Of a stretch of DNA of 64,000 bases, positions 19,502 through 57,832 are shown piece after piece. Under the pieces are notes generated by a model. The model ran no database searches, had not been told where the DNA came from, and saw only the letters and a list, made by a program, of their open reading frames with translations. The DNA comes from a virus. Taxonomy: Duplodnaviria; Heunggongvirae; Uroviricota; Caudoviricetes. Both the position numbers and the translations under genes were made by a program. The stretch is taken from the IMG/VR virus record IMGVR_UViG_3300028888_000043, positions 9,756-73,755 of that record; one strand, given 5' to 3'. Positions within the stretch are counted from its first letter, which is position 1, and each line of letters starts with the position of its first letter.

Positions 19502-19699
19502 ATGAGTATCTGGGCAGACATGCACCGTAGAAGTAACGGTGTACAGGAAAGAAAGGAGAACAAGATAAAGGAATGGGATGATGAAATCACTTGGCCTCAT
19601 GTACTGAAAGTATATAGCAAAACCATTTCCGGTAATATTGTATCAGTACAACCAATGTCCCCACCAATAGGTAAGTTATTTTATACAGATTTCAAATGA
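19502..19699 (+). CDS. MSIW-leader family member 1 (65 aa)
   Basis: N-terminus MSIWADMHRRSNGVQERKE. Confidence 0.6.
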   Translation: MSIWADMHRRSNGVQERKENKIKEWDDEITWPHVLKVYSKTISGNIVSVQPMSPPIGKLFYTDFK

Positions 19700-19863
19700 G
19701 TATCTGGGCAGACATACACAGAAGAAGTAATGGTCTTCAGGAAAGGAGAGAAGATATCCTTGCGAGAATAAAGTATCAGGAATATCTTTCATACTTGAAA
19801 AGTCCACAAAAATTTATGGATGAATATGTAGTTATTTTTCCTCCACATTCTAACAAAGAATAA
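19696..19863 (+). CDS. MSIW-leader family member 2 (55 aa)
   Basis: MSIWADIHRRSNGLQERRED...; ATGA overlap; below ORF-track cutoff. Confidence 0.45.
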   Translation: MSIWADIHRRSNGLQERREDILARIKYQEYLSYLKSPQKFMDEYVVIFPPHSNKE

Positions 19864-19864
19864 T

Positions 19865-20257
19865 ATGAGTATCTGGAGAGACATACATAAAAGGAGTAAT
19901 GGTCTAACACAAAGAAAGGAAGACCAGATTGATAAGAGTCCTTATGCAACAAGGGCAGATGTTGAATCCATCATACAACCAATCACATATGCTGGAATTG
20001 TAAACTCACAAAGTCAATTACCACAGTCGGCAGCAGTAGGGGCAATCTTCTATGCCCAGGGTACTGGTGAATTTTATATCTACACCAATAATGGTTTTGA
20101 GTTAATCTCATCTGTAACTACTTGCGACAATAATTTGGATTATATTGATGACTCCATTGGTCAACCTATTAAACCATTTGAACCCACTATCGTATCTGTT
20201 GAAACAAAAAATGGAATTTATTATGAAACTATCTTTAGAGAACATAACTATCAATGA
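19865..20257 (+). CDS. MSIW-leader family member 3 (130 aa)
   Basis: MSIWRDIHKRSNGLTQRKED. Confidence 0.6.
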   Translation: MSIWRDIHKRSNGLTQRKEDQIDKSPYATRADVESIIQPITYAGIVNSQSQLPQSAAVGAIFYAQGTGEFYIYTNNGFELISSVTTCDNNLDYIDDSIGQPIKPFEPTIVSVETKNGIYYETIFREHNYQ

Positions 20258-21503
20258 CCACAAGATATTTGACCAGGAGGGAAAGTATAGGGGTGAAATC
20301 CTGTATGAGTACATCCGCGGATCCCATCTCTATGGTACCAATGTTGCCACTTCCGATGAGGATAGGGGAGGTATATACATTATGCCCAATGACAATCTCC
20401 TCGGTCTTGGTTTTGATTATCAGAACGAAATCAAGGATGCCAGTAATGACAAGTGCATCTGGGAACTTGGTCGGTTCCTGGAACTGGCGCTCTCTTCCAA
20501 CCCTACGGTCCTGGAAGCCCTATTTGTTCCTGATGACAAGGTTATCTATGAGCACCCTGTCATCAAGGATATCCGTTCGTACCGTGACGAGTTTGTGACC
20601 AAGAAGTGCTTCGCTCCATTCGGAGGATATGCAGAACAACAGATCAAAAAAGCCCAGGGTCAGAACAAGAAGATTCACTGGGATATGGAAGATGTTCAGA
20701 GAAAGAACCCTCTTGACTTCTGCTACACCTTCAAGAATCAAGGAAGTCAGAACATCCAGGACTTCCTGAAGGAGAACAAACTCGATCAGAGATACTGTGG
20801 TCTCGTGAACATCCCCAAGATGAAGGATGTCTATGGTGTGTACTATGACTTCGCTGCTTACTTCCACTTCGAGAACATTGACTGGTATGATGTGAGCTTC
20901 CAATCTGGTGGTGTCAAAGCACCATATAACAAATTCATCAAAGATGGTCAGTGGAGTGATGAGATTTCACTCCGTATCAGTCAGCATGCCTTCTATGGTT
21001 ATGCGGGCATCGTCAACCCGGAGGATCCCACCAAGTCCAATGAGGTAAGACTCTCTTCCATCCCAAAGGGTGAACACCCCATCTGCTTTATGGCCTACAA
21101 CTCCGATGGTTATGCTCATCACTGCAAGAAGTACAAGGAGTATGATGAGTGGAGACAGAAGAGGAACAAGGCCAGATATGAGTCCAATATGGATGGTGAG
21201 AAGTCTGGTGACCCTGATATGAAGTATGACTGCAAGAATATGATGCACTGCTTCCGTCTGATGTCGATGGCGAAGGAGATTGCTGAAGGTAAGGGTATCC
21301 TTCTTGACAGGACAAACATAGACAGGGAATTCCTCCTGGATGTAAGAAACAGGAAGTTTGGTTATTCAACCCTCAGCGAACTGATGCTCAACCTGAAAGA
21401 CAAGATGGACGAGGCAATCAAGAACTCCACCATCAAGGAGGAGATTGACCGGAAGATGGTCAATGAGATTCTGTTGAATGCAAGAAAACAATTTAATCAA
21501 TAA
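20223..21503 (+). CDS. predicted nucleotidyltransferase (COG3541 / RNA-repair-associated Pol-beta-like family)
   Basis: RGSHLYGTNVATSDEDRGGIYI is the minimal NTase signature GS...D.D; start uncertain (ATG 20211 or 20223; track start 20145 is TTG). Confidence 0.5.
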   Translation: MKLSLENITINDHKIFDQEGKYRGEILYEYIRGSHLYGTNVATSDEDRGGIYIMPNDNLLGLGFDYQNEIKDASNDKCIWELGRFLELALSSNPTVLEALFVPDDKVIYEHPVIKDIRSYRDEFVTKKCFAPFGGYAEQQIKKAQGQNKKIHWDMEDVQRKNPLDFCYTFKNQGSQNIQDFLKENKLDQRYCGLVNIPKMKDVYGVYYDFAAYFHFENIDWYDVSFQSGGVKAPYNKFIKDGQWSDEISLRISQHAFYGYAGIVNPEDPTKSNEVRLSSIPKGEHPICFMAYNSDGYAHHCKKYKEYDEWRQKRNKARYESNMDGEKSGDPDMKYDCKNMMHCFRLMSMAKEIAEGKGILLDRTNIDREFLLDVRNRKFGYSTLSELMLNLKDKMDEAIKNSTIKEEIDRKMVNEILLNARKQFNQ

Positions 21504-21508
21504 AAACT

Positions 21509-21784
21509 ATGTCAGCATTAACTATCATTTGTATTATTCTCAGTTCTCTTTTCATTATCATTGATCTCATCAAGGGTGAAATTGGATGGGTGTTAATATG
21601 GATTATCATCCTTGGTCTTAACATCTTCACAGGTATCAATGAGATTAAAAAAAAAGAAAAGAAACTCAATGGAGATGTAGAAACCTATGTCATCCATGAT
21701 GTAAAGGGGTTCAAGGCAGACACCACGACCATCATTAATGGTACTGATACCACTAAGACTTATATACTAACATATTGGAAATAA
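21509..21784 (+). CDS. small membrane protein (2 TM)
   Basis: hydrophobic N-terminus LTIICIILSSLFIIIDL..WVLIWIIILGLNIF. Confidence 0.45.
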   Translation: MSALTIICIILSSLFIIIDLIKGEIGWVLIWIIILGLNIFTGINEIKKKEKKLNGDVETYVIHDVKGFKADTTTIINGTDTTKTYILTYWK

Positions 21785-21796
21785 TTTTTTAAAGAT

Positions 21797-23048: not shown

Positions 23049-23052
23049 AGTT

Positions 23053-24037: not shown

Positions 24038-24040
24038 GAT

Positions 24041-26293: not shown

Positions 26294-26336
26294 AAATATT
26301 TGGATATATCAGAAAAAATATGTATCTTTGTAATAG
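26294..26336 (+). promoter_or_regulatory. class-A consensus promoter (AAATATTTGG, about 20 nt, TATCTTTGTAATAG)
   Basis: Bacteroidetes -33 TTTG / -7 TAnnTTTG grammar; one of 13 near-identical copies. Confidence 0.6.
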
Positions 26337-32654: not shown

Positions 32655-32690
32655 TGTATTGCCATAAATATTTTTATATAATTATAAGTT

Positions 32691-35112: not shown

Positions 35113-35163
35113 GTCATTCCCCATAAATACCTATATAGTATCAGAAAACTAATTCTAAACAAT

Positions 35164-37656: not shown

Positions 37657-37658
37657 TA

Positions 37659-38441: not shown

Positions 38442-38467
38442 ATAATTATATTATAAGTGATTAACCA

Positions 38468-40852: not shown

Positions 40853-40880
40853 AGAGCCTTTTAACTCTCTATTTTTTTTT
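40850..40880 (+). terminator. Rho-independent terminator
   Basis: TAGAGAG-ccttttaa-CTCTCTA then T9. Confidence 0.7.
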
Positions 40881-40901
40881 GAAATTATCCATAAATAATT
40901 T

Positions 40902-42859: not shown

Positions 42860-42906
42860 AAAAAAAATTTGGTAGTCTCGTTTTTTTGTTGTATCTTCGT
42901 ATCAGG
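42860..42906 (+). promoter_or_regulatory. class-A consensus promoter (variant -7 TATCTTCG)
   Basis: AAAAAAATTTGG...TTGTATCTTCGTATCAG. Confidence 0.5.
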
Positions 42907-43691: not shown

Positions 43692-43763
43692 AAAAGTCAA
43701 GATTCTTTGAAACTTTTTCCAGGATTACAGGTATTATATAGTGAACCTTTAGAAGACACAGAC

Positions 43764-44588
43764 ATGATTAACTACACCAACATCACAGAGAACATCAACA
43801 TCTATTTCCGTGAAATCCGCAAGTTCCAGAACATGACCAAGGAAGATGAGGATATCCTTTTCTTCCGGGTGTCTCAGGGAGACAACTCTGCCGTCACTGA
43901 AATCTTCAACAAGATGGCGAAGCTCGCAGTCGCAACTGCAAAGACCTATACATCCGACCCAGACCTCCTTCAGGATCTCATCCAGGAGGCAAACTGCGGA
44001 ATCCTGGAGGCCATCCGGAAGTTCAACCCTTCAATGGGCTTCCGCTTCTCCTCCTATGCCCGCTGGTGGATGAAGGCGAACATCTCCAAGTTCCTTAATG
44101 AGAGCATGACTGTCCATCCTTCCAATGGGAGACTGATAATCATCGCCAAGAGAATCCGCCAGGAGTTCTTCAAGGAGAACCAGAGGGAAATCACCGAGTG
44201 TGAACTGATGGATCTCCTGGAAGAGAGAGGAGAGGTAGTCACTGACATCACCGCCATTTTGTCAGTCACTGTCGACAGTATTGACAAAGTGTCAGGTGAC
44301 GATGACAGCACCTTTGAGCAGTCCAAACTGTTCAACTCCAGGTCCGCCATCGACAATGACTATCTGTGTGTGGAGGAGAATGAGAGTCTCTCCGATGACA
44401 TTGATGGTCTGCTGAACAGACTCACCATCCGTGAAAGGACTATGGTGAAGATGAAGTTCGGTATCGGCTTTTCCGAGATGGAATATCCCGACATCGCCAA
44501 GAAGTGGGCAAGGATGACCGGTGAGAAGGTGATGAGTGCGGAGAGAGTCCGTCAGATCGTGGTAGGCGCTCTCAAAAAAATGAAGTAA
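43764..44588 (+). CDS. sigma-70 family RNA polymerase sigma factor (regions 2-4)
   Basis: DLIQEANCGILEAIRKFNPSMGFRFSSYARWWMKANI (region 2.1-2.4); LTIRERTMVKMKFGIG...SAERVRQIVVGALKKM (region 4.2); ATG start (track start 43707 is TTG). Confidence 0.75.
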   Translation: MINYTNITENINIYFREIRKFQNMTKEDEDILFFRVSQGDNSAVTEIFNKMAKLAVATAKTYTSDPDLLQDLIQEANCGILEAIRKFNPSMGFRFSSYARWWMKANISKFLNESMTVHPSNGRLIIIAKRIRQEFFKENQREITECELMDLLEERGEVVTDITAILSVTVDSIDKVSGDDDSTFEQSKLFNSRSAIDNDYLCVEENESLSDDIDGLLNRLTIRERTMVKMKFGIGFSEMEYPDIAKKWARMTGEKVMSAERVRQIVVGALKKMK

Positions 44589-44607
44589 CCCATAAAACAG
44601 AAAAGAT

Positions 44608-45213
44608 ATGAAAAGCAACTCTGACATCATCTACGTCATCAGCGCCCTGGTCGTGGTCGTCATCTTCCTGGGAGGTCTTAAACTTTTCATCGACCAGGAC
44701 AACAAGGATAAGGTGACCGAGACCATCATCGAACCCTCCCAGCAGGAACAGGTTGTTGACTTCAGTCATAATCCCGACCTCTACTACCAGTCTCTCCTCT
44801 ACAAGAGTGACAAGGGATTCAAGGAGATTGGTCTCTACACCATCCTCGGTCCCGACTATGACAAGTTCAACTATGTGGTGGATGCCGATCCTGAAATCCA
44901 GGAATATATGGACAAGACCCTCAAGGGATACTGCCACCAGACTCTCAACCTGTTCAATATGGCCTGGAATGATATGAAAGAGAATGACCTCTATGACGGT
45001 CATATGATCAATGTCCTGGAATCCATCATCCGGCAACAGAAAATGTTCCTGAATAAGTATGGATCTGCCAATGTGAAGGAATATGCCAAGACCAATATCT
45101 TCCGGGATGAGAATATCAACCTCGCTGCAGCCTATGAGACAGCTGCAAAGATGAAGAAGGTTGAAATGCTCGACCACTTCACTACAGAATATGAATTAAA
45201 AAACACCAAATAA
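44608..45213 (+). CDS. membrane-anchored protein (201 aa)
   Basis: N-terminal TM IIYVISALVVVVIFLGGL. Confidence 0.45.
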   Translation: MKSNSDIIYVISALVVVVIFLGGLKLFIDQDNKDKVTETIIEPSQQEQVVDFSHNPDLYYQSLLYKSDKGFKEIGLYTILGPDYDKFNYVVDADPEIQEYMDKTLKGYCHQTLNLFNMAWNDMKENDLYDGHMINVLESIIRQQKMFLNKYGSANVKEYAKTNIFRDENINLAAAYETAAKMKKVEMLDHFTTEYELKNTK

Positions 45214-45218
45214 AGACT

Positions 45219-45437
45219 ATGTTCAAGAATTACATCAGCGTGTCCTTCCAGGTTGTAGGAGGTAACTTCGGATGTGTGTACACGGCCATCAGAGGAAAGT
45301 TCACCTTTGATGAACTCAAACAGAAGATCTCCAAATTCGCCAATGACAAGTATGGTTACAATGTCGATCCGAAAGACATCACCATCACCGGCATCAGTGA
45401 AATCTCCCGGAGACTGTACAAACGATTAACCAAGTAA
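45219..45437 (+). CDS. hypothetical protein (72 aa)
   Basis: ORF. Confidence 0.4.
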   Translation: MFKNYISVSFQVVGGNFGCVYTAIRGKFTFDELKQKISKFANDKYGYNVDPKDITITGISEISRRLYKRLTK

Positions 45438-45442
45438 GACCT

Positions 45443-45823
45443 ATGATCAGGAAGACCGGAGAATACTCCAAGATGAAGAAAATGGATCTATCCAAGTGGG
45501 TGGTGACCAAGTTCTACCACTACACATCCTGTGCAAGGGATGTCTTTGCCGAGTATGATCCATTCTGGCATGAACCTGCCTGGGGTGACCCCTATGTGAA
45601 AGAGGTGTATGACCATTTCCTGAAATGTGCCGATGCCTACCTCAACTATCCAAAGATAGATTTTGCATCCCTGGGCAACCAGAACAAGACAACCATAGAG
45701 ATTTTCAACATCAAGACCGGAGAGAAACTATACCTCACCCAGTATGACGGCCGCTACTCCATCGGCAGGGATGTGTGGAGTGAGTTCGGTTATGTAACAG
45801 AATTTGGAATCATCAAGAAATGA
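45443..45823 (+). CDS. hypothetical protein (126 aa)
   Basis: ORF; ATGA overlap with next. Confidence 0.45.
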   Translation: MIRKTGEYSKMKKMDLSKWVVTKFYHYTSCARDVFAEYDPFWHEPAWGDPYVKEVYDHFLKCADAYLNYPKIDFASLGNQNKTTIEIFNIKTGEKLYLTQYDGRYSIGRDVWSEFGYVTEFGIIKK

Positions 45824-46191
45824 GTGTCTGGGCAGACATACACAAGAGGAGTAACGGCACCACTGTCCGGAAAGAAGATCTTCCCCAGGGGTATGATCCA
45901 ATCCTGGAAGAGAGGATGAAGAAGTATGAAGAGGAGAGGAAAATAGAGGTGGCAAAAGCAGAGAAAGAACAAAGGTTCCTGGACATCTGGGACAGTATCT
46001 GTCTTGCTATGGTCATCATCATGATTTTCTCTTCTGTAGTGACTGTAACCTGTGTCTTGATGTATGGTAATTATTTACCCATCTGGCTGATGGTGATCTT
46101 TTGTTCGTCCGCATTCGCCAGTATGGTAATGTCCATTGGTGGAATGTATTTCAATGATATGAGAAGTCATATACGAAAATATCTGGAATGA
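45820..46191 (+). CDS. MSIW-leader family member 4 (123 aa; C-terminal 2 TM)
   Basis: MSVWADIHKRSNGTTVRKED; hydrophobic C-terminal half. Confidence 0.6.
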   Translation: MSVWADIHKRSNGTTVRKEDLPQGYDPILEERMKKYEEERKIEVAKAEKEQRFLDIWDSICLAMVIIMIFSSVVTVTCVLMYGNYLPIWLMVIFCSSAFASMVMSIGGMYFNDMRSHIRKYLE

Positions 46192-46445
46192 GTATCTGGT
46201 CTGACATACACAGAAGATCCAATGGTCTTGCCATCAGGAAAGAGGATGACATCCAGCAGGAACCGCCGATAATAGACCTGGACTTTTCATCCTTATATCC
46301 AAGGACCATAATCTTTGATCATCCGGAATCACTGTCTGATGGTTCAGGTCAGAATCATACACAGGCAGACTTTGATGAGTTGTTGAAAAAATATTTAAAA
46401 GAATTAAGAGATGAGCGTCTGGGCAGATATACACAAGAGGAGTAA
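46188..46445 (+). CDS. MSIW-leader family member 5 (85 aa)
   Basis: MSIWSDIHRRSNGLAIRKED. Confidence 0.55.
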   Translation: MSIWSDIHRRSNGLAIRKEDDIQQEPPIIDLDFSSLYPRTIIFDHPESLSDGSGQNHTQADFDELLKKYLKELRDERLGRYTQEE

Positions 46446-46932
46446 CGGTGTCTCCTTGAAAAAAGAGAAGGTCGTCTTCAAGGAGATGGTCTATTCTTCT
46501 TACAGGGAAATTGAAATCATTGCCCGCAATGTCTACAAGGGAGTCGAGTACTTTGTTGTGAACATCGGAATCCATCCCTGTGCATATGTGGTCTGTGAGA
46601 AGGAATTCCTTGACAAGCATAGAGATGAATGGGGTGACATCGATGGCATCAGTGTCCATGGAGGAGTGACCTATACTGGAAAACTCTCTGCTCTATCTGC
46701 TTTCGATGATGACCTGGAGCTGGAAGATGTATATTGCTTCGGTTGGGACTATGGCCATTGCGGCGACTGGTCAGGATACCTGACTGACTTCCAGAATGGT
46801 GAAAACAGGAAGTATGATACTTGGATGGTGGTTGATGATTGCAAGTCTGCCATCGACCAGTACCTGGAAAAGAAGAAACAGGATGACTCACTGGCAACCC
46901 TGACCTACACCGGATCATACTGGGTGGCATAA
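46411..46932 (+). CDS. MSIW-leader family member 6 (173 aa); C-terminal domain paralogous to stand-alone gene 46998-47684
   Basis: MSVWADIHKRSNGVSLKKE; shared GIHPCAYVVC..VHGGVTYTG..CFGWDY..DW domain. Confidence 0.6.
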   Translation: MSVWADIHKRSNGVSLKKEKVVFKEMVYSSYREIEIIARNVYKGVEYFVVNIGIHPCAYVVCEKEFLDKHRDEWGDIDGISVHGGVTYTGKLSALSAFDDDLELEDVYCFGWDYGHCGDWSGYLTDFQNGENRKYDTWMVVDDCKSAIDQYLEKKKQDDSLATLTYTGSYWVA

Positions 46933-46939
46933 ATATCAG

Positions 46940-46974
46940 AGGCGATGTCAAGGCATCGCTTTTGTTATATTTAA
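46940..46974 (+). terminator. terminator hairpin plus class-B element TTTTGTTATATTTAA
   Basis: GGCGATG-tcaagg-CATCGCT then TTTTG. Confidence 0.55.
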
Positions 46975-46997: not shown

Positions 46998-47684
46998 ATG
47001 AAGGAAATCATCTACAACCATCAGCCCAATTTCTTCGAGATAGTTGATGAGGGTGAATACAAGGGTGTGAATTACATCTGTATCAACAGGGGAATCCATC
47101 CGGCAGCATGTGTCATCTGTGATGAGAGGTTTCTCAAGAAGCACACCAGTAAGGGAGGTATCATAGAGTGCATCACTGTCCATGGAGGGATGACCTATTG
47201 TGGTGACATCAGTAAGGTGAAGCAACTTGAGGGTCACACTGGTCATTGCTTTGGCTGGGAGTACAACAGGAACAATGACTGGGCCGGATTCTGGACAGAT
47301 GAGGAGAACATCAAGGCGGGCAACCACAAATGGACAACCAAGGAACTGGTATATGACTGTCACCGGGCTATCGACCGCTACCTGGAGATTATGGAGAAGG
47401 ATAATATCCTCGACCCGGTGACCAGTCCGCTCATCACCAAGGATGATCTCAAGAACCTGGGATTCCACTCCATCTATGAGATGATGAAGAATGATGAGGA
47501 GAGTGCCTTCCAGTTAAATGGAGTCAATGATGGGAACAAGTGGTCCATCTATGTGGATCTCCAGACTCCCAGTCTGTCCTATGCCAGGAATCAGAGTCCG
47601 AGAAGGAAGTATGAAGGAAGTATCCTGACTATGGAGGAACTCCGGATGGTGGTGGATCTCTGTGACATCCCTATAGATATTTGA
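46998..47684 (+). CDS. hypothetical protein; paralog of the C-terminal domain of MSIW member 6, lacking the leader
   Basis: GIHPAACVICDERFL..VHGGMTYCG..CFGWEY..DWAGFW; ATG start (track start 46962 is TTG inside the class-B element). Confidence 0.5.
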   Translation: MKEIIYNHQPNFFEIVDEGEYKGVNYICINRGIHPAACVICDERFLKKHTSKGGIIECITVHGGMTYCGDISKVKQLEGHTGHCFGWEYNRNNDWAGFWTDEENIKAGNHKWTTKELVYDCHRAIDRYLEIMEKDNILDPVTSPLITKDDLKNLGFHSIYEMMKNDEESAFQLNGVNDGNKWSIYVDLQTPSLSYARNQSPRRKYEGSILTMEELRMVVDLCDIPIDI

Positions 47685-47691: not shown

Positions 47692-47718
47692 GCGATTATG
47701 CGATTGCGGCCAGAATTT
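47692..47718 (+). repeat. TGCGA tandem-repeat element (CTGCGATTATGCGATTGCGG)
   Basis: same element family as 29545, 42794, 49152, 61516, 63034. Confidence 0.6.
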
Positions 47719-49195
47719 CATCTGTAATTGCATAAATCTTTTTCTTATATGAACTCCAACCAGCAGCGGCCTTATAAGCATCCACAGATTCTGCTGGAAC
47801 ATAGTAGCCACTCACCATATACCATTGAGAACCATTTCCAGTCGCTTCCCTTGTAGGAGGAGTAGTTGCAAGACATACCACCTTGAGACCATTTGCAGCA
47901 TACTGACCTGATCTATCACCGATATATGTCAAAGTAGAAGGGAAGACAATGTACTGACAGACCTCATTGTTCTTGTCATACCAGGGACAGACCTGTGTGT
48001 ATGCACCATTGTCCATCTTTGCCATAAAATCCCTGAACGATCCGGCCATCAGTTTGGTGACACCTTCCGCTATCTTGACTACATTCTGCTTTGACAGACC
48101 ATAATCAGCACCGCCATAACAGATAGTTCCATCCTTGGAGTAGACAATGTTGTTGACTGCTTTGAAGTTTGGATTGTTTTCATCTATGGTGATGGTCTCA
48201 AGCATATCCCAGAAGACGTCATTGTATTGACCGGTATAATCTGCGCCATTACCCAGTGTCTGAAGTCTTTCACCAATGTGTATCTCTCTCGGTGAAAATT
48301 GATTTGAAAACACTTCTTCACCAAACAACATCAATCTTGGAAGGTTCAATATCTCCTGGAATTTACCTGGATATGTATCATAGATATTGGAAAATGCGCC
48401 GTGACCTATATATGTAAGAGTATCCGGGAGTAATTGAGTACCTCCTGGAATACCTGATGTCTGGGCATATCCTATACTTGAACCAGCAAAAGCATAATTC
48501 TGGATAACATTCAATCCCTGGTTCATATTCACATGGGACAATTCACCACAGAAGGCGAACGCCTGTACGCTCACCTGCTTCAGTGTGGACGGGAAGGTAA
48601 TCTCCTTCAGTTTGCTGTTCCTGAAACAGTAGTTTCCGATTATCATCATACTTGGAGGAAGAGTTATACTCTCAAGGTCATATGCACCGAAGAATCCACC
48701 CTGCTTGGCTGCCTGTTCTTCATATGTGGTGTCTGTGAAAGTGGTCTTCGTGACATTCACAAAGAACTGGAACTCATCAAAATGCTTCAGGTTGGCAAAA
48801 GTGAGAGACCTGTAACCTCCAGGTGTGGATGAATCCGACACAAGTATGTTGGCTGCATTGAATGAATCATTTGTAACAGCAATCGCCTGGTCAATGGTCA
48901 TGAATGTGTCTGTCTGTCCCACCCAACCGGCATTCCTGGCGATTTCCATCGCTTCCGGGTTGGACTGGTTGGTCATTATCTTCCTGTAGAAGATTTTCTT
49001 CTTCCATTTTTCTGTGTCTGTCGTCTTCAATGTACACAAAGTAGGATAGTTCACCGGGTTTTCCGAGACATCTTGGATGTATTCATCCACTGTATTGTAT
49101 TCTTTTAAATACTTCATAACATAATAGTCCTTTATATTATTTATGACCTTTCTGCGAATCTGCGACTGCGATATGCGATAGACTGAAATCCACAT
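47696..49195 (-). CDS. BspA-type leucine-rich-repeat protein (499 aa), minus strand
   Basis: repeated I(G/Q)NYAF..C..L..I.(L/F)P units (ITLPPSMMIIGNYCFRNSKLKEITFPSTLKQV...); both ORF ends lie inside TGCGA-repeat elements. Confidence 0.55.
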   Translation of the reverse strand: MWISVYRISQSQIRRKVINNIKDYYVMKYLKEYNTVDEYIQDVSENPVNYPTLCTLKTTDTEKWKKKIFYRKIMTNQSNPEAMEIARNAGWVGQTDTFMTIDQAIAVTNDSFNAANILVSDSSTPGGYRSLTFANLKHFDEFQFFVNVTKTTFTDTTYEEQAAKQGGFFGAYDLESITLPPSMMIIGNYCFRNSKLKEITFPSTLKQVSVQAFAFCGELSHVNMNQGLNVIQNYAFAGSSIGYAQTSGIPGGTQLLPDTLTYIGHGAFSNIYDTYPGKFQEILNLPRLMLFGEEVFSNQFSPREIHIGERLQTLGNGADYTGQYNDVFWDMLETITIDENNPNFKAVNNIVYSKDGTICYGGADYGLSKQNVVKIAEGVTKLMAGSFRDFMAKMDNGAYTQVCPWYDKNNEVCQYIVFPSTLTYIGDRSGQYAANGLKVVCLATTPPTREATGNGSQWYMVSGYYVPAESVDAYKAAAGWSSYKKKIYAITDEILAAIA

Positions 49196-49457: not shown

Positions 49458-49501
49458 GAAATATTTGGATATTACAGAAAAAAGTATTATCTTTGTAATA
49501 G
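49458..49501 (+). promoter_or_regulatory. class-A consensus promoter
   Basis: GAAATATTTGGATAT...TATTATCTTTGTAATAG. Confidence 0.55.
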
Positions 49502-50336: not shown

Positions 50337-50675
50337 ATGGATTACAATGAAATCAAGAAGAGATTGGGGATGAACTCCAGAACAGAGACTGTCAAGTGCA
50401 GTTGCTGCGGCAAGGAGCTCACTGTCCCCAATATGTACAAGAGACAGGACCTGGACATCCTAAAACCCTACTGTGGTGCAGCAACCGTGCTCACTATCCA
50501 GTGGATGATTCATCACGGGTGGCACATCACCGCCCTGGATGATGAACACAAGAGTCGTTTCTACTGCCCAGACTGTTTCCTGGAAGGAACACCGGAGTAC
50601 CAGGAAGCACCTTATGCAAAAGACTGGTGTGAGCAGGCCGGAGAGTGGATGAAGGAGAATGATGGCAAGCAATGA
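50337..50675 (+). CDS. Cys-rich Zn-finger-like protein (112 aa)
   Basis: CSCCGKE...YCG...YCPDCF. Confidence 0.4.
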   Translation: MDYNEIKKRLGMNSRTETVKCSCCGKELTVPNMYKRQDLDILKPYCGAATVLTIQWMIHHGWHITALDDEHKSRFYCPDCFLEGTPEYQEAPYAKDWCEQAGEWMKENDGKQ

Positions 50676-50908
50676 GCATCTGGGCTGACATGCACAGGAG
50701 ATCCAACGGTACTTCCATCAGGAAGGAAGATAAGGTGATTCCTGAAAAACCACAGGAGAACTGTATGCATGGTAGACCGTTGAGTTATGATTACGGGAGT
50801 AAAATCTACAAGACATACACCTGTGATTTTGGGAGTAAAATCTACAAGACCTCAGATCTTGATGACATGTTGGACAATTTAAAGAAGGATTATTATTTCT
50901 TTTACTAA
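50672..50908 (+). CDS. MSIW-leader family member 7 (78 aa)
   Basis: MSIWADMHRRSNGTSIRKED; C-terminus contains duplicated SKIYKT motif. Confidence 0.55.
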   Translation: MSIWADMHRRSNGTSIRKEDKVIPEKPQENCMHGRPLSYDYGSKIYKTYTCDFGSKIYKTSDLDDMLDNLKKDYYFFY

Positions 50909-51603: not shown

Positions 51604-51645
51604 AAATTTGGAAAATCCGGAAAAAAGCATTATCTTTGTAACAGA
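51601..51645 (+). promoter_or_regulatory. class-A consensus promoter
   Basis: GGAAATTTGG...GCATTATCTTTGTAACAG. Confidence 0.5.
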
Positions 51646-51760: not shown

Positions 51761-52009
51761 ATGAAAAAAGTCACTGCCGAAGAACTGCACAAGATGCTCT
51801 GCCAGGGAACTGTCAAGTTCCAGTACACCAAGAATGACGGTTCGGTCCGCACCGCAGTCGGAACCCTCAAGTCCTCCCTCATCACACGGAAGCCCGGCGG
51901 CGGAGAGAACAAGGTCAAGGGTGCAGGGTACACCACATATTTCGATCTGGAGAAAGATGCATTCCGCTGCTTTGCAGAGTCCAAACTCCTGGGTGTGATT
52001 GAGAAGTAA
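51761..52009 (+). CDS. hypothetical protein (82 aa); stand-alone paralog of the C-terminal domain of MSIW member 8
   Basis: VKFQYTKNDGSVRTAVGT...GYTTYFDLEKDAFRCF..LLGV; start uncertain (ATG 51719, 51737 or 51761). Confidence 0.4.
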   Translation: MKKVTAEELHKMLCQGTVKFQYTKNDGSVRTAVGTLKSSLITRKPGGGENKVKGAGYTTYFDLEKDAFRCFAESKLLGVIEK

Positions 52010-52572: not shown

Positions 52573-52633
52573 ATTTATGATTTATGAATTGCAAATCGCT
52601 ATAAATACTGTATACAATCAAATCCAGTAAACT

Positions 52634-53017
52634 ATGAGCATTTGGTCTGACATGCACAAGAAGAGCAATGGTGAATTCCGTAGGGAAGATGCTTTCATCT
52701 TCCAGGAGATCACTCCGGAAGAACTTGCCAAGATGTTCACCAAGGGTATCGTGCATTTCAAATACAGGAAGAAGGCGAAGAAAGGTCAGCCCTGGGACAG
52801 CGGAGTCGAGAGAGAGGCCTGGGGGACCAAGAATATGAGTGTGGTCTCCAAGATTCCTCACGGAGGTTACTGTCCTCCAAAGCAGGCTGGTTACACTATC
52901 TACTTCGATGTGGAGAAGGCAGACTGGAGAGCATTTTCCGATTACCTGCTGCTTGGTGTCTGTTCACATATCTTCACAGAAGAAGAGTACACTAAATTCA
53001 TCAATAATGAAATGTAA
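52634..53017 (+). CDS. MSIW-leader family member 8 (127 aa)
   Basis: MSIWSDMHKKSNGEFRRED; C-terminal IVHFKYRKK...GYTIYFDVEKADWRAF..LLGV domain. Confidence 0.6.
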   Translation: MSIWSDMHKKSNGEFRREDAFIFQEITPEELAKMFTKGIVHFKYRKKAKKGQPWDSGVEREAWGTKNMSVVSKIPHGGYCPPKQAGYTIYFDVEKADWRAFSDYLLLGVCSHIFTEEEYTKFINNEM

Positions 53018-53366: not shown

Positions 53367-53398
53367 ATGTGTAAGTAATTCTAATAGAAAGTAAAAGT

Positions 53399-54010: not shown

Positions 54011-54012
54011 CT

Positions 54013-54441: not shown

Positions 54442-54454
54442 GTCTGATGTAATG

Positions 54455-54545: not shown

Positions 54546-54626
54546 TGTCAGGATATGAAATCCACTGACGACCATCTGCCATCTGCGACGACGAACTGCG
54601 AAAGAAAGATTTTTGAAAAAATGTGA

Positions 54627-54670
54627 GAAATATTTGGATATGTCGTTTTTTTGTAGTATCTTTGTAATAG
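54627..54670 (+). promoter_or_regulatory. class-A consensus promoter
   Basis: GAGAAATATTTGGATAT...GTAGTATCTTTGTAATAG. Confidence 0.55.
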
Positions 54671-54698
54671 AAAAAGAAACCAACAGAAAAACAAAGAC

Positions 54699-54953
54699 AT
54701 GAAACTCATTGCTGACATTTTCAACTACATCCTCCTTACCGGAGCGTTCCTTTTTGCAGTGGCGCTTTTCATCCAGACGAACAGAGAACTCTGGGAGAAC
54801 TTCAAGGAAGACTATGGTGACTGGTTCAAGAGCACCAGAATCGGGATGTGGTTCAACAACAGGAAGAATGGAGTAACCATCCTCACAGACGATGAATATG
54901 AGAATCTCCAAATGACTGGAAAGATTATTCCCATTGAAGTTGTGGAGGATTAA
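54699..54953 (+). CDS. small membrane protein (84 aa)
   Basis: TM helix LLTGAFLFAVALFI. Confidence 0.45.
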   Translation: MKLIADIFNYILLTGAFLFAVALFIQTNRELWENFKEDYGDWFKSTRIGMWFNNRKNGVTILTDDEYENLQMTGKIIPIEVVED

Positions 54954-54956
54954 GTT

Positions 54957-55127
54957 ATGGCAAGAGAGAAGAAAATCTTTGACATCTATGTCGACTATGA
55001 GTATGGTTGTGATGAGACCTACACCGTTGAGGCATACACCCTGGCAGAGGCCAAGAAGAAGGCAAAGAACCGCTTTATGAGGGAATACTTCAAGAAGTCC
55101 TATGTAAAGGCTTTAAAAGCATACTGA
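54957..55127 (+). CDS. basic mini-protein (56 aa)
   Basis: MAREKKIFDIYVDYEYGCDETY...; below cutoff. Confidence 0.3.
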   Translation: MAREKKIFDIYVDYEYGCDETYTVEAYTLAEAKKKAKNRFMREYFKKSYVKALKAY

Positions 55128-55139
55128 TACAAGTTCCGA

Positions 55140-55270
55140 AGCGGTCTGGAATAAACCGTTCGGTTCCATAAGATTGCAGAGGAACTTTTATATGTTGTTT
55201 TCATGTTGTTATGTGTTTTTGGGGTGTCAGTATGTTGGGAAATATACTGACACCATTTTTTTAAGAAATT
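55140..55270 (+). terminator. intergenic double hairpin (CCGAAGCGG..CCGTTCGG; GGTGTCAGTAT-gttgggaaa-TATACTGACACC then T7)
   Basis: second hairpin is a 11-12 bp stem followed by a T-run. Confidence 0.55.
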
Positions 55271-55278
55271 TTATTATT

Positions 55279-55770
55279 ATGAAACATATCGCAAACCGCA
55301 TCGCAGATGACTTCCTGAATGACAAGGAATTCCAGAGTAAGATTGACACTGTGGTTCTCGGCATCAGACAGAACTCCAGTATCATCGCCAAGAAATATGG
55401 TGAACTGTTCACCGATGCCAAAAAGGAGTTTCTTCTGGTTGAAAGGTCTTTAATCGCCAAGATTGTCACCAGCGTTTATAATGAGACCAAGGAAATCCGG
55501 AAGAGAATCAAGAAGAAAGAAACCGGTTTGAATGATGTTCCGATCCGCATCGACATCAACATCGAGCGGTGGAAGGAATTGAAGGTCTATGGAAGAATGC
55601 TCGACCTGAACAAATATGGAATATCCCTTGCCGGCAAGCTCAATGAATCACTGAAGAAGTATCACCTGGATGGAATAGTCAAGGCGTATTATGATGTCCC
55701 ATATTTCTCCGGAAATGGACAGATGTTTATAACCTTTCAGGTGACAGATCCTCAAGAATTTACTGAATGA
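55279..55770 (+). CDS. hypothetical protein (163 aa)
   Basis: start trimmed to ATG downstream of hairpins (track ORF 55174 spans the terminator). Confidence 0.45.
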   Translation: MKHIANRIADDFLNDKEFQSKIDTVVLGIRQNSSIIAKKYGELFTDAKKEFLLVERSLIAKIVTSVYNETKEIRKRIKKKETGLNDVPIRIDINIERWKELKVYGRMLDLNKYGISLAGKLNESLKKYHLDGIVKAYYDVPYFSGNGQMFITFQVTDPQEFTE

Positions 55771-55790
55771 GATTATAAGAAACTGTAATT

Positions 55791-56141
55791 ATGAAATGGA
55801 CTGACATTTGGAGACCTCCCTTCCGGAATGACCACTATGGTTATATCTGGGACAGAGACAATGTGATGACATTCAGTGTAGATGATCTCACAGAGGAGAA
55901 TGACCGGCAGATGCAGGACTTCTGTGACAACCTGGTCAAGGCGCTGAATGGTGAGGAGTGCATGAAATATCCTGATCTCCAGGTGAAGGATGGATGTGAC
56001 CTGTACAGAGGAGAGGAACTCCTGGGATCCTTCAGAGGATGGGGACATCTCACCGGTGGGTTGAAGATGAAACCGGAAGAAGCGGCCGCTGTCCAGGATC
56101 AGCTGATTAGTTTTGCATTGGACAAGATTGCAGAGAGATGA
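55791..56141 (+). CDS. hypothetical protein (116 aa)
   Basis: ORF. Confidence 0.45.
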   Translation: MKWTDIWRPPFRNDHYGYIWDRDNVMTFSVDDLTEENDRQMQDFCDNLVKALNGEECMKYPDLQVKDGCDLYRGEELLGSFRGWGHLTGGLKMKPEEAAAVQDQLISFALDKIAER

Positions 56142-56377
56142 GTATCTGGGCGGACATACACAAGAGAAGTAACGGGTTCAAGCTGAAAGCAGAGGACAGG
56201 GTATCTGTGAAAGCAGAGACATTTGACGATTTCGTGAAGATTCTTGAAGATGCATATACAGCAGGAGATGAAAGCCGTGTTCAGATGATTTTTATCGCTA
56301 ATCCCAAGTATAGCAGAATATATGACATTGATGCCCTGATGAAAAATCTCAAATATAAAAAGTCATTAAATTTATGA
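56138..56377 (+). CDS. MSIW-leader family member 9 (79 aa)
   Basis: MSIWADIHKRSNGFKLKAED. Confidence 0.55.
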   Translation: MSIWADIHKRSNGFKLKAEDRVSVKAETFDDFVKILEDAYTAGDESRVQMIFIANPKYSRIYDIDALMKNLKYKKSLNL

Positions 56378-56628
56378 GTGTTTGGGTTGACATGCACAAG
56401 AGAAGCAATGGAGCGGCAGTCCGGAGAGAAGACTCAGACTGGTGGATAGGAATTCCTGGAATCAGAGTCATTGATCATGGAGAATGGGCAGATTTAGAGT
56501 TGTCATATCAAGGAAAGACACTGAACTTCTATGAGGTGATTGAGATTGCTGAAAGATGGTACAAGGAGACATATAATGTAGAAACAGTTCCTTTGTCCAG
56601 TTTAGTGAAATTCATCAGGCTGGAGTAG
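56374..56628 (+). CDS. MSIW-leader family member 10 (84 aa)
   Basis: MSVWVDMHKRSNGAAVRRED. Confidence 0.55.
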   Translation: MSVWVDMHKRSNGAAVRREDSDWWIGIPGIRVIDHGEWADLELSYQGKTLNFYEVIEIAERWYKETYNVETVPLSSLVKFIRLE

Positions 56629-56653
56629 AAAAGAATAAAAGCATTATTTAGAG

Positions 56654-57001
56654 ATGGAAAATTATATTGAACAATTGAAGGATATCATCCTGGAGAACAA
56701 CTACTTTGATACCCTTGCCGGTGAACGGTTCAGGGAGTGGAATGGTATCCGCAACATCAAGGCCGTCATCGCATTCGCCGGCAGATCCAAGAAGCAGCAG
56801 AGTTACCGGTTGACATCCGGGTCAGAGAGCGATACCATCTATGTGACTCATCTGTACATTGATATGTTTGGTGAGGTGAAGGCCCAACTCGGGTCAGAGG
56901 ACAATGATGACTTCACATCCATCCTCCATCCCAGTGATGAACCTGTTGATGCATATGGTGAGGAGATACTCCAAGAGTGGGTTGACCTGTTGACATATTA
57001 A
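56654..57001 (+). CDS. hypothetical protein (115 aa)
   Basis: ORF. Confidence 0.45.
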   Translation: MENYIEQLKDIILENNYFDTLAGERFREWNGIRNIKAVIAFAGRSKKQQSYRLTSGSESDTIYVTHLYIDMFGEVKAQLGSEDNDDFTSILHPSDEPVDAYGEEILQEWVDLLTY

Positions 57002-57013
57002 TCTGACATTGCA

Positions 57014-57190
57014 ATGAGTATCTGGAGAGACATTCACCGGCGGAGCAACGGTCTCCAGGTGAGGCAGGAAGACACTGTTCAGGATGACTTGGATTATATC
57101 CAGGAGAAGTTTGTGAAGATCCTCAAGATACCAAGAGGATGGATGAATCCTTTATCTAATATTGACATTCAAAAAGATCTCAAGATATGA
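57014..57190 (+). CDS. MSIW-leader family member 11 (58 aa)
   Basis: MSIWRDIHRRSNGLQVRQED; below ORF-track cutoff. Confidence 0.45.
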   Translation: MSIWRDIHRRSNGLQVRQEDTVQDDLDYIQEKFVKILKIPRGWMNPLSNIDIQKDLKI

Positions 57191-57396
57191 GTGTTTGGAG
57201 AAAGATGCATGAACATTCCCTTGGTGAACCGAGGAAAGAGGATACCATACAACCAGTAACCTGGAAAGCATATATACAGATGGCCGGGCAAATGAAAGAA
57301 CTCAAAATGAGAATCCAAGTCTTGGATAAGGAAATGAAGAAACTTGCGAAATTAAATAATAAATTGTATCATGAGTGTTTGGACAGATCTACATAA
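57187..57396 (+). CDS. MSIW-leader family member 12 (69 aa, degenerate leader)
   Basis: MSVWRKMHEHSLGEPRKED. Confidence 0.45.
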   Translation: MSVWRKMHEHSLGEPRKEDTIQPVTWKAYIQMAGQMKELKMRIQVLDKEMKKLAKLNNKLYHECLDRST

Positions 57397-57832
57397 AAAG
57401 AGTAATGGGATTACAGTGTCCCAGGAAGACTTCCATCTTATATACGGTGAAAGGGATGATGTAGACACCCTCTGTGAAGAGAATTACAAGGATGGGACAT
57501 ACGAGGTGAAGACCAATGGGATGTACCCCTTCCTGGAGATCATCTTCAACAGGGGACTCTCCATCTTCTCCGGAAAGGATGTGGTCAGACTGAAGTCTGA
57601 CTCCGGAGAGTATTATGACCTGGGAAGATATTACGGTGATGGACATACTGTCTTCAACTATTGGTTCAACAAGCCGGAGGATTATATTGGGACAGGATCT
57701 GACCCGGAAACGATGATTGTGAAACCTCACCCTGGTCACAAGTATACACTGGATGAACTGAAGCAGATTGCCGAGATGTTCATTGACCTGATTCACCAAT
57801 GTGAGAGTGAACTGACCAATCATATGGAGTAG
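57371..57832 (+). CDS. MSIW-leader family member 13 (153 aa)
   Basis: MSVWTDLHKKSNGITVSQED. Confidence 0.55.
   Translation: MSVWTDLHKKSNGITVSQEDFHLIYGERDDVDTLCEENYKDGTYEVKTNGMYPFLEIIFNRGLSIFSGKDVVRLKSDSGEYYDLGRYYGDGHTVFNYWFNKPEDYIGTGSDPETMIVKPHPGHKYTLDELKQIAEMFIDLIHQCESELTNHME

Follow-up and report, generated by a model that had tools for sequence, protein, structure and literature searches.

The internal proteins of phage T4 are unrelated, hyperplastic small proteins that share a short conserved N-terminal peptide and are encoded outside the structural module. This targeting peptide of 10 to 19 residues is cut off after the Glu of an [L/I]-x-Glu site. The proteins are made during prohead assembly, either late or both early and late, and they enter the virion and are injected. 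Both the T4 capsid-targeting sequence (CTS) and Glu-specific prohead proteases are documented (PMC8442874, PMC5694885). In the giant phages phiKZ, 201phi2-1 and SPN3US, ejection or inner-body proteins are processed at (S/A/G)-x-Glu. The paralogues gp53 and gp54 of SPN3US have identical N-termini (PMC5694885). Polyvalent proteins and polyproteins of phages and conjugative elements have multiple domains, are delivered with the DNA and are cut into effectors. RiPP precursors, e.g., the prochlorosins, are short, with a core peptide of a few dozen residues behind the leader, and are encoded beside modifying and export enzymes; their paralogous genes are numerous and keep the N-terminal leader conserved while the remainder diverges.

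We compared these systems with a gene family in the window, i.e., the whole 64-kb stretch analyzed here. The window belongs to a metagenomic contig of 410,934 bp, which derives from a huge uncultivated rumen phage (~411 kb) that uses Bacteroidota-type promoters. A preliminary description had reported thirteen small genes sharing an N-terminal leader (the tag) and had proposed, by analogy with T4 internal proteins, that the leader addresses cargo for packaging or injection. All thirteen genes were found where it had placed them, and its overall idea was partly supported. As in T4, the payloads behind the conserved N-terminus are hypervariable and their genes lie outside the head module; the 13 C-terminal parts in the window are unrelated, and BLAST places the units of the whole family in 57 clusters. 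However, the tag shows no sequence similarity to the T4 CTS, and a removable targeting peptide of the T4 type is absent from the window genes, which open with the tag. That feature was present upstream of the tag in the class B homologues described below.

The tag family in the window

The tag genes and the two leaderless paralogues are the following.

19502-19699, + strand: tag gene 1, 65 aa; tag, spacer and a fragment of a T4-type major capsid protein
19696-19863, + strand: tag gene 2, 55 aa; overlaps gene 1 by ATGA
19865-20257, + strand: tag gene 3, 130 aa; weak PHROG hits only
45820-46191, + strand: tag gene 4, 123 aa; hydrophobic (membrane-type) C-terminal segment
46188-46445, + strand: tag gene 5, 85 aa; leader profile hit
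46411-46932, + strand: tag gene 6, 173 aa; phrog_2164 domain (4e-10)
46998-47684, + strand: paralogue of gene 6 without the leader; preceded by a terminator and a T2-type promoter
50672-50908, + strand: tag gene 7, 78 aa; leader profile hit
51761-52009, + strand: WYL_2 paralogue of gene 8 without the leader, 82 aa; its operon has a host-type promoter
52634-53017, + strand: tag gene 8, 127 aa; WYL_2 PF10902 (4e-11)
56138-56377, + strand: tag gene 9, 79 aa; leader profile hit
56374-56628, + strand: tag gene 10, 84 aa; leader profile hit
57014-57190, + strand: tag gene 11, 58 aa; leader match
57187-57396, + strand: tag gene 12, 69 aa; divergent tag MSVWRKMHEHSLGEPRKED, profile E 2.6e-15
57371-57832, + strand: tag gene 13, 153 aa; leader match

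All thirteen start with the consensus MS[IV]WxD[IM]H[KR][KR]SNGxxx[RK]xE[DN]. A degenerate DNA pattern of the leader gave 12 matches in the window versus 0 in 100 shuffles, and the leader profile gave exactly 13 hits in the six frames (E 1e-18 to 7e-15), with the next best hit at only E 0.11. As corrections to the preliminary description, the leader of gene 12 is divergent, and genes 8 and 12 have one residue fewer ahead of RKED. Glu-19, the sole conserved Glu of the tag, is invariant, and P3 relative to it is R, K, S or Q in the window genes. No Pfam or PHROG profile covers residues 1 to 20 of any window member or class B protein, searches of IMG/VR and of 50,697 deposited phage genomes gave no match, and the literature searched did not contain the motif string. 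The tag is thus undescribed, as had been suggested, and the phage accessory proteins that carry it form a new, exchangeable family. Secretion signal peptides (Sec, Tat or lipoprotein) have a basic N-terminal region and a hydrophobic core, followed by a cleavage site or lipobox. Read from the sequence, MSIWADIHKRSNGxxxRKED has neither a hydrophobic core nor a Cys lipobox, and a secretion signal peptide was rejected on these grounds.

The C-terminal parts proved mutually unrelated, as reported: none of the 13 grouped with another in BLAST clustering, and only those of gene 8 (PF10902) and gene 6 (phrog_2164) matched a known family. Both also occur without the leader. Gene 6 and 46998-47684 share 42% identity (E 2e-35) in a match that begins at residue 22, and PF10902 was found in both gene 8 and 51761-52009. 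These results agree with the proposal of a portable peptide module on hypervariable accessory proteins. The C-terminal 35 residues of gene 1 match major capsid proteins from Flavobacterium phage immuto (E 2e-4), from RM378 and from huge uncultured phages; the fragment aligns with residues 99 to 125 of T4 gp23, derives from the most conserved region of the T4-type protein and gave a weak Pfam Gp23 hit. The C-terminal part of gene 4 is common to several relatives (P0136 and P0189-P0193), and the domains of genes 11 and 12 are fused into one gene in two others (P0071 and L017).

In the AlphaFold2 model of gene 13, residues 1 to 28 had pLDDT below 50 as opposed to about 83 for the domain, which had no fold match in the PDB. 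In both models obtained, representing two different domain types, the tag was of low confidence and detached from the well-folded domain, suggesting that it is flexible. The clustering of the tag genes might suggest a recent segmental duplication, which the preliminary description had already dismissed, or the tag might simply open a single globular domain. This explanation is refuted and has next to no probability: the downstream sequences are unrelated, the flanks show background identity (0.26 to 0.31), the modeled tag stands apart from the fold, and the leaderless paralogues fold without it. Tag genes resemble RiPP precursor genes in their number and layout. However, the tag is basic and hydrophilic without a double-Gly type site, the remainders are folded domains of 35 to 150 residues (WYL_2, phrog_2164, a membrane segment), and no RiPP modifying enzymes or exporter were found near the window tag genes, so this identity was rejected.

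The tag is conserved at the peptide level. Over codons 2 to 13, pairwise identity was 0.83, 0.87 and 0.56 at codon positions 1, 2 and 3, respectively; Ser11 is encoded by AGT, AGC or TCC and Arg9/10 by both CGN and AGR. The claim that the conserved unit is the peptide and not the DNA holds in this respect, but not for Ser2, whose codon is AGY in all 13 window genes and in another 23 leader genes found on other contigs (36/36 class A genes), although the pattern used to find the latter permitted TCN. The first four to five bases are therefore under nucleotide-level constraint, with a built-in TGA. ATGA overlap with an upstream stop, described as frequent among members, occurs in 7 of the 13.

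The conserved unit could then be mainly a nucleic-acid device, an ATGAGY cassette for stop-start coupling and a recombination hotspot, with the peptide secondary. The fixed AGY, the seven overlaps and the signs of cassette shuffling (fusion of genes 11 and 12 in relatives, adjacent leaderless paralogues) fit this idea. We nevertheless consider it very improbable: the residues are fixed across the 20 codons but their third positions vary freely, the upstream DNA shows no conservation, and class B proteins keep the peptide internally, where there is no initiation, with a TCN codon for its serine (Ser-1 of the predicted mature unit) in 21 of 23 copies.

Class A and class B proteins

An exhaustive profile search with the leader, as recommended in the preliminary description, defined a family of 246 protein clusters with diverse fused units, all of them metagenomic. 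In class A, the form in the window, the tag directly follows the start Met; in class B, from AT-rich sister phages, each protein has one to six copies. Among the proteins retrieved, 108 copies of the tag start at residue 2, right behind the Met, and 143 lie elsewhere, and the two forms were never combined in one of these proteins. Glu precedes 139 of the 143, and P3 is I, V, L, M or T in 139 of the 143, giving the class B junction rule [ILVMT]-x-Glu. The N-terminal prepeptides of class B (n = 61) are 6 to 16 residues long (6 to 13 in 60 of 61) and all end in Glu. Some, such as MVKSFKEFIGE and ..KTFNEFINE, come close to K[ST][FY]x[EK]FIxE and resemble T4 IpII/IpIII (MKTYQEFIAE) and IpI (MKTFKEF..), whereas many are unlike the T4 sequence (e.g., MKKLSE and MKKLSKIDE).

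Gene ends in one genome coincide with tag junctions in another, indicating gene fusion and fission. For example, residues 2 to 254 of a two-unit protein of locus L026 match a 263-aa gene of L025 (52% identity, E 3e-94), and residues 254 to 417 match a 174-aa gene of the same locus (70% identity, E 3e-86) that bears the prepeptide MIPDFKTYLKE. Because of this coincidence, class B resembles precursors of T4-style internal proteins cut after Glu, and the multi-unit precursors look built for cutting by a capsid protease; the [ILV]-x-Glu ends of the prepeptides would likewise suit a Glu-specific prohead protease. To this extent the T4 analogy of the preliminary description was borne out by the sister phages, but a CTS role for the tag itself was not supported. 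Unlike in T4 internal proteins, which share nothing at that position, the 20-residue tag follows the predicted cut and would be kept, and multi-unit polyproteins are unknown for the T4 proteins. No head module (gp21-type protease, scaffold core, gp23-type capsid protein) was found in the 64-kb window or the other loci examined. The T4-like UvsX, SbcD and GroES types in class B gene content and the gp23-type fragment in gene 1 are indirect evidence for a putative T4-type prohead protease in the tag phages.

The giant-phage ejection proteins offer a second parallel: they too belong to huge phages, have many paralogues and lie inside the head, where cleavage follows Glu, both of which are predictions for the tag proteins. 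However, the propeptides removed from them usually exceed 100 residues, their P3 residue is small instead of hydrophobic as in class B, and their packaging has been shown by proteomics, whereas that of the tag proteins is putative. Class B proteins also recall polyvalent proteins in chaining two to six unrelated effector-like units with regular junctions. They differ in that the junction is one conserved 20-residue motif without embedded peptidase domains, and the window phage keeps its units as separate genes.

Promoters and operons

The window contains 15 TTTGG-N19-TAnnTTYGTA sites (host-type, Bacteroidota -33/-7), and 12 of the 13 tag genes lie in operons headed by such promoters, which suggests early expression.

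18235-18268, + strand: host-type promoter heading the operon of tag genes 1-3
42868-42901, + strand: host-type promoter heading operon 42927-46932
49464-49497, + strand: host-type promoter heading the operon of tag gene 7
54633-54666, + strand: host-type promoter upstream of tract 54699-57832 (tag genes 9-13)

Operon 42927-46932 encodes a sigma factor and tag genes 4 to 6 and ends at a hairpin (46937-46964); this hairpin and TTGTTATATTTA at 46962 precede the leaderless gene 46998-47684. The operon of the leaderless WYL_2 gene has a T1 promoter at 51607-51640. A further hairpin (55223-55254) lies between the promoter at 54633-54666 and tag genes 9 to 13. Gene 8 is the sole tag gene with its own CTATAAATA (T3) promoter (52599-52607), which is found at equal distance in its orthologues (L012, L014 and L019). 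An M42 aminopeptidase is encoded near the window tag genes.

The class B phages have the same three promoter types, and their tag genes follow (T/C)CATAAATA. This promoter, which also precedes RimK-like and homing-endonuclease-like genes there, may be termed late by its likeness to T4 TATAAATA.

The early-type genes, the requirement, shared by the two forms, that the tag be exposed at the extreme N-terminus, its flexibility in the models and the nearby aminopeptidase could all point to a timing signal, i.e., an N-terminal element by which a putative host or phage protease or unfoldase clears the early proteins jointly. This seems unlikely to us. To our knowledge, N-terminal Ser is not among the bacterial N-degron residues, and a degradation signal on injected class B proteins would be left without explanation.

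Function of the tag

Our preferred reading, tentatively held at a probability of about 45%, treats the tag as a portable docking handle on early accessory proteins and not as a removable leader, with two routes by which the cell comes to contain the same mature proteins. In the mature protein, the tag would have to form the very N-terminus, with Ser-1 exposed after removal of the start Met, and it would be kept on small, fast-turning-over accessory proteins that act early in a Bacteroidota host. By the class B route, T4-late-like promoters would give single- or multi-unit precursors with a prepeptide resembling the T4 CTS. Given this prepeptide and the [ILVMT]-x-Glu junction, a site type of T4-family prohead proteases, the precursors would probably be loaded into the prohead, cut into units starting with Ser-[Ile/Val]-Trp and injected. 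By the class A route, each unit has its own gene, whose ATG-AGY start falls exactly at the class B junction. Since these genes are mostly on host-type early promoters, their proteins would be made inside the cell instead of being delivered. In either case, the tag may dock unrelated domains onto one common putative partner, for which we favor a host-cell factor.

The reading closest to the original proposal takes the tag as a capsid-targeting leader, with the 13 proteins loaded into the prohead, perhaps cut after Glu-19, and injected as cargo. It gains from the T4-like combination of a conserved N-terminus and hypervariable payloads, from the homologous tag on class B proteins with CTS-like prepeptides and late-like promoters, and from the capsid-protein fragment in gene 1. 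Furthermore, the invariant Glu-19 lies as many residues in as the T4 IpI targeting peptide is long, and gene 8 has the conserved CATAAATA promoter. Early operons would be compatible with virion loading, because proteins made early can still be packaged. However, the predicted cut in class B falls before the tag, which would stay with the C-terminal product, and the tag's only conserved Glu, E19, in RKE breaks the P3 rule of the junctions, which argues that the tag is retained. With no CTS-like prepeptide anywhere in the window, host-type operons for 12 of the 13 genes and the Bacteroidales contexts described next, packaging of the window proteins is possible but not the best-supported reading, and a capsid-targeting role of the tag itself is doubtful.

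The tag also heads single genes in Bacteroidales-type chromosomal or island contexts, one of them in a rumen Bacteroidales MAG, with no capsid genes in the available stretch around them, which argues against a capsid address. These contexts may represent mobile elements that have gone unrecognised and are related to the tag phages. The neighbours include AbiEi/AbiEii-like ORFs, recognised by eye from their translations, and DUF2779 and BspA-LRR genes, identified by Pfam in two loci (L008 and L013) and by resemblance in a third (L027).

The tag family and its members in the window

The window contains exactly 13 genes, all on the plus strand and named here by their start coordinates, whose products begin with MS[IV]WxD[IM]H[KR][KR]SNG, followed by 2 to 3 variable residues and [RK]xE[DN]. 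These are the 13 tag (or leader) genes of the preliminary description, each found at its reported position. A leader profile run against the six reading frames of the window gave 13 matches (E of 1e-18 to 7e-15; next best E of 0.11), and the leader written as a degenerate DNA pattern gave 12 matches compared to 0 in 100 shuffles. The stretch over which 13 copies were counted is the window plus 8.4 kb before and 3.8 kb after it. The C-terminal parts, claimed to be mutually unrelated, were indeed so, with no two of the 13 clustering together, and known families were matched in only two: WYL_2 in gene 52634 (PF10902, 4e-11) and phrog_2164 in gene 46411. Both have the leaderless paralogue nearby that had been reported for them. 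The gene at 46998-47684 is 42% identical to 46411 (E of 2e-35) in an alignment that starts at residue 22, and the gene at 51761-52009 belongs to PF10902 like 52634. A shared start produced as a duplication or domain artefact was ruled out.

Within the leader (codons 2 to 13), the pairwise identity was 0.83, 0.87 and 0.56 at codon positions 1, 2 and 3, respectively, and the flanking DNA was at background (0.26-0.31). Ser11 is encoded by AGY or TCC, and the Arg residues by CGN or AGR. The free third positions, the codon switches and the background flanks indicate that the peptide is the conserved unit, as had been proposed, and they speak against the rival explanation that the tag is a nucleic-acid cassette. 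One exception at the nucleotide level stands on the side of that rival: Ser2 is AGT or AGC in all 13 window genes and in 23 leader genes of other contigs, even with a search pattern that admitted TCN, so that the gene start reads ATGA. The TGA of this start serves as the stop codon of the upstream gene in 7 of the 13, to which the overlap described as frequent is confined.

Genes 57014 and 57187 (window 57014-57396) correspond to a single fused gene in relatives (tag protein P0071 from the profile search; a minus-strand gene at 1431 in the metagenomic locus L017). A second, degenerate tag, MSVWRKMHEHSLG, lies at the split in the window, which suggests that a gene can be split when a tag is inserted or duplicated.

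The leader had no match in Pfam or PHROGs, a tblastn search of GenBank phages with the peptide gave a chance match only, and the motif string was absent from the literature searched. Patterns for the two tag classes distinguished below found nothing usable in IMG/VR. A word-index search returned only 29 short orthologues, a JGI metagenome scan returned 17 further leader loci, and a scan of 185,579 species genomes returned one, in a rumen Bacteroidales MAG. When 1.84 billion representative proteins were searched exhaustively with the profile (E up to 0.001), 246 matched, all of them unnamed metagenomic proteins; since the representatives stand for clusters at 50% identity, this amounts to at least 246 clusters. 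The profile defines a family with varied fused units: 249 units, taken from the 150 listed proteins and from further tag proteins that were fetched, were clustered by BLAST with the 13 window genes and gave 57 clusters. The observation is real, and the new family extends far beyond what the window alone would indicate.

Two classes of tag were never mixed within one fetched protein. Class A, the window type, comprised 108 tag copies among the fetched proteins, in proteins of up to 213 residues with the tag directly after the start Met. Class B, from AT-rich sister phages, comprised 143 copies in 71 proteins, with 1 to 6 copies per protein at a spacing of ~150 residues. Glu immediately preceded the tag in 139 of the 143 class B copies, and three of the four exceptions were class A genes with over-extended starts. 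The P3 position, two before the junction Glu, was I, V, L, M or T in 139/143.

Class B polyproteins and the predicted fate of the tag

The 61 N-terminal class B copies are preceded by a prepeptide of 6 to 16 residues (6 to 13 in 60 of them), which ends in Glu in 61/61.

Prepeptide types of N-terminal class B tag copies
M[IV]PDF[KR]T[FY][ILV]xE: n = 32
M[KR][KR][LF]S..E: n = 19, one with a longer called start, MYDYFYKMKKLSKIDE
MS[KR][FY]YEHIxE: n = 5
..K[ST]F[KN][EK]FIxE: n = 5

The last type is near to the targeting peptides of the T4 internal proteins, which read MKTYQEFIAE in IpII/IpIII and MKTFKEF... in IpI in the T4 genome. An apparent two-residue 'ME' prepeptide in the class B locus L026 was discarded because the start had been called wrongly; from the correct start the prepeptide reads MKKLSQLME.

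Two class B contigs were read (118 kb, GC 32%; 106 kb, GC 35%), and the multi-unit gene had a fixed place in both. The gene order by PHROG matches was SbcD-like, GroES-like, exonuclease, polyprotein, RimK-type ATP-grasp, RimB-like, UvsX-like and DnaB. Five to eight more tag genes were clustered beside the polyprotein gene, with Lcl_C-like domains among their payloads, and in one class B case an M15 peptidase lay upstream of an internal tag. Sequence comparison indicates that gene boundaries and tag junctions are interchangeable in class B. Residues 2-254 of a two-unit L026 protein match the first gene of L025, the other class B locus (52% identity, E of 3e-94), and residues 254-417 match the second (70% identity, E of 3e-86), which has its own prepeptide, MIPDFKTYLKE. 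For the Ser that opens the tag, class A genes used AGY without exception (36/36), and 21 of 23 class B copies used TCN. These codon sets are not joined by single synonymous steps, so selection has kept the Ser across a deep split.

Two genes of DUF7487, probably homing-endonuclease-like, lie on either side of the L025 polyprotein gene (8924-9973 and 12267-13370) and are absent there in L026. All class B polyproteins (P0032-P0034, P0038 and others) end in a conserved domain of ~110 residues, ..NECEGVPGG..PGSGDLPSPTG.VY..poly-Lys..FRKEDEPC..YVDRTYNN.DRK, with a second RKED inside. It had no match in phage databases, and the idea that this domain (..GDLPSPTGIVY..) is capsid-like was dropped, as no capsid matched.

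In T4, the targeting peptide is removed after Glu by the prohead protease, and its fusion to foreign proteins leads to their encapsidation (PMC8442874; PMC9958956). The prohead proteases of T4, phiKZ, 201phi2-1 and SPN3US all cleave after Glu (PMC5694885). By sequence, the class B proteins fit T4-style precursors, with a late-like promoter, a prepeptide resembling a targeting sequence and Glu sites that recur regularly with a hydrophobic residue at P3, and we infer that they would be cleaved by a T4-type prohead protease. In each case the predicted cut falls before the tag, on its N-terminal side, and the tag would thus be retained. Furthermore, E19 within the tag has Arg or Lys at P3, against the rule kept by 97% of the junctions. 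The predicted retention and the P3 violation together argue that the tag is not the counterpart of the T4 targeting sequence. The preliminary description had seen in the tag a T4-like capsid-targeting leader on packaged or injected cargo; the analogy holds for the class B prepeptides and Glu sites but not for the tag itself, and we consider that model unlikely. The T4 internal-protein system is the closest known system, of which the present one is a variant rather than a member, differing in the retained tag and in the existence of polyprotein forms.

A start Met is normally removed before Ser. Nothing lies between Met and Ser in class A, and every class B extension ends in Glu. Met removal in class A and a cut after Glu in class B would therefore leave the same mature N-terminus, Ser-[Ile/Val]-Trp, which suggests that the tag has to be exposed at the very N-terminal end of the mature protein in order to function. 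AlphaFold2 models agree with a tag that is an appendage apart from the folded domain: residues 1-30 of a class B single-unit protein scored 56-61 compared to ~90 for its domain, and residues 1-28 of gene 57371 scored below 50 compared to ~83. The commonest class B payload, the type-1 domain (90 units; model of P0128), was predicted as a confident fold (pLDDT ~90) with a weak likeness to the YbjN/type III secretion chaperone fold (Foldseek E of 6e-3, TM 0.40-0.46), and a fold search with the 57371 model gave no match.

Promoter-like motifs, genomic contexts and the proposed role

Three promoter-like motif types of the window phage were recognised by reading intergenic regions; a sigma-70 promoter scan of the window stayed at chance level.

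Promoter-like motifs of the window phage
T1, TTTGG-N19-TAnnTTYGTA: 15 sites, plus strand, e.g. 26299-26332, 42868-42901, 54633-54666
T2, TTGTTATATTTA: 6 sites, e.g. 10677, 28664, 46962, 53355, 59781, directly after terminator hairpins
T3, (C/T)CATAAATA: 9 sites, 8 close before a start codon (10-60 nt), e.g. 32662-32670, 35121-35129, 40889-40897, 52599-52607, 59817-59825

T1 has the known -33/-7 housekeeping promoter form of Bacteroidota, which implies the host polymerase and presumably early genes. T3 resembles the T4 late promoter, TATAAATA, and by this analogy would be a late-type promoter; it precedes, among others, large proteins of 793, 830 and 628 aa. Twelve of the 13 tag genes lie in operons headed by T1 (18235-18268, 42868-42901, 49464-49497 and 54633-54666), presumably early ones by the same kind of comparison, and the operon at 42868-42901 combines a sigma factor with tag genes. 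A T3 site of its own was found for 52634 alone among the 13, at an equal distance in three orthologous loci. The class B phages L025 and L026 have T1, T2 and T3 motifs as in the window phage, indicating that the two groups are related and share a host phylum. There, T3 precedes the polyprotein gene and the first gene of the tag cluster, and T2 precedes UvsX and SbcD.

Single tag genes also occur on contigs of GC 46-50%, beside AbiEi/AbiEii-like ORFs (recognised by eye) and DUF2779 and BspA-LRR genes (Pfam matches in the metagenomic loci L008 and L013); on one such contig the neighbours are of lipoprotein type and clearly bacterial. In these contexts the tag is joined to an HExxH domain (~230 residues) or to a helical domain (~150 residues).

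The best reading of these sequences, to which we give a probability of about 0.45, is that the tag is a retained docking handle on accessory proteins acting at the onset of infection. Class B phages would deliver the tag proteins ready-made into the host, and the window phage would make them on the spot from early-type operons. The handle would dock onto a partner, and a host factor is favoured because of the tag copies in bacterial contexts. A rival explanation sees in the tag a timing or degradation signal. If the docking reading is true, a 20-residue peptide marks a large set of accessory proteins, otherwise missed by annotation, in uncultivated huge phages of the gut and rumen, and it offers a direct experimental handle for finding the docking partner and whether the proteins are injected. 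In that case, the regular Glu-Ser junctions would also extend T4-type prohead protease processing to true polyproteins, and the class A/B pair would show a single effector repertoire that has switched in nature between capsid delivery and early expression.

A broader version, which we regard as doubtful, makes the tag a universal plug by which one lineage of huge Bacteroidota phages can couple any domain to a single host or phage machine as infection begins, with gene 19502 as an early capsid-peptide decoy. The same mature proteins would arrive by two interchangeable routes: by injection, after the prohead protease has released them as units from polyproteins, or by immediate early expression from genes that start exactly at the former cleavage junction.

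Gene 19502 and the genome of the window phage

The tag gene that bears on the decoy idea is the following.

19502-19699, plus strand: gene 19502, 65 aa, tag + 25-residue spacer + peptide ..ISGNIVSVQPMSPPIGKLFY..., in an early-type operon

The 35 residues at its C-terminus correspond to part of the region that is best conserved in T4-type major capsid proteins. Database-wide, the peptide matched major capsid proteins of T4-like Bacteroidota/huge phages (Flavobacterium phage immuto, E of 2e-4; RM378; LR756508; LR756511), and it aligns to residues 99-125 of T4 gp23. A review places the strongest conservation of gp23 in the Gol region, through which EF-Tu is bound and the Lit protease triggered (PMC3014915). 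We infer that the match coincides residue for residue with Gol. Judged from this likeness, 19502 could be a decoy for a capsid-sensing defence or a regulator, and the mini-gene is a concrete lead on a phage answer to such defences. With 19502 as query for the capsid protein of the window phage, five matches were obtained, none a capsid protein; with the closest deposited capsid protein as query, close relatives dominated the matches listed, among which the phage's own capsid protein was not found. T4 gp20, gp21, gp22, gp23, gp67 and gp68 had no match in the window and the loci reached.

The window genes are found verbatim on the JGI contig Ga0310697_10000001 (410,934 bp), where the window lies at ~9,072-73,071. 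None of 50,697 deposited phage genomes proved to be a close relative in a megablast search with 13 kb of the window. The phage encodes a Dda-like helicase, an RNA ligase, Thg1, an RlaP nucleotidyltransferase, a sigma-70-like factor and two BspA-type LRR proteins. A tRNA array lies just upstream; such arrays with interspersed small ORFs are typical of huge phages.

Other features of the window phage and related loci
149-6477 of metagenomic locus L030 (contig ~820-7150), just upstream of the window: 16-tRNA array with small ORFs in between
1604-2695: M42 glutamyl aminopeptidase
11908-12507: GmrSD_N-like protein
14668-15402: R2K-type ATP-grasp enzyme
32691-35072, and 47696-49195 (minus strand): BspA-type LRR proteins without obvious signal peptide
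35164-42788: four large genes in a row (830, 260, 794, 628 aa), with the CATAAATA motif directly upstream of the 830-aa and 628-aa genes
42927-43691: gene preceding the sigma-70-like factor, weak match to the DNA mimic protein Arn (E of 1.3e-3)
43707-44588: sigma-70-like factor (regions 2 and 4), in the early-type operon of tag genes 4-6
L008 4998-6614, L013 4333-6996 and L027 6017-7060 (metagenomic loci): BspA-type LRR proteins beside tag genes in Bacteroidales-type islands

The four large genes had no Pfam or PHROG match, and the 628-, 794- and 830-aa proteins had none among PDB sequences; they could be virion proteins. It is conceivable that the M42 aminopeptidase and R2K ATP-grasp enzyme of the window phage, and the RimK-type ATP-grasp and RimB-like protease of class B, are tied to N- or C-terminal Glu processing. 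Adjacent to tag genes, BspA-type LRR proteins lacking an obvious signal peptide are a recurrent feature of the phage and of the Bacteroidales-type islands alike. The T3 motif at 49146-49138 falls within the called start of the minus-strand BspA gene, and the true start of this gene (47696-49195) is therefore probably the ATG near 49120.
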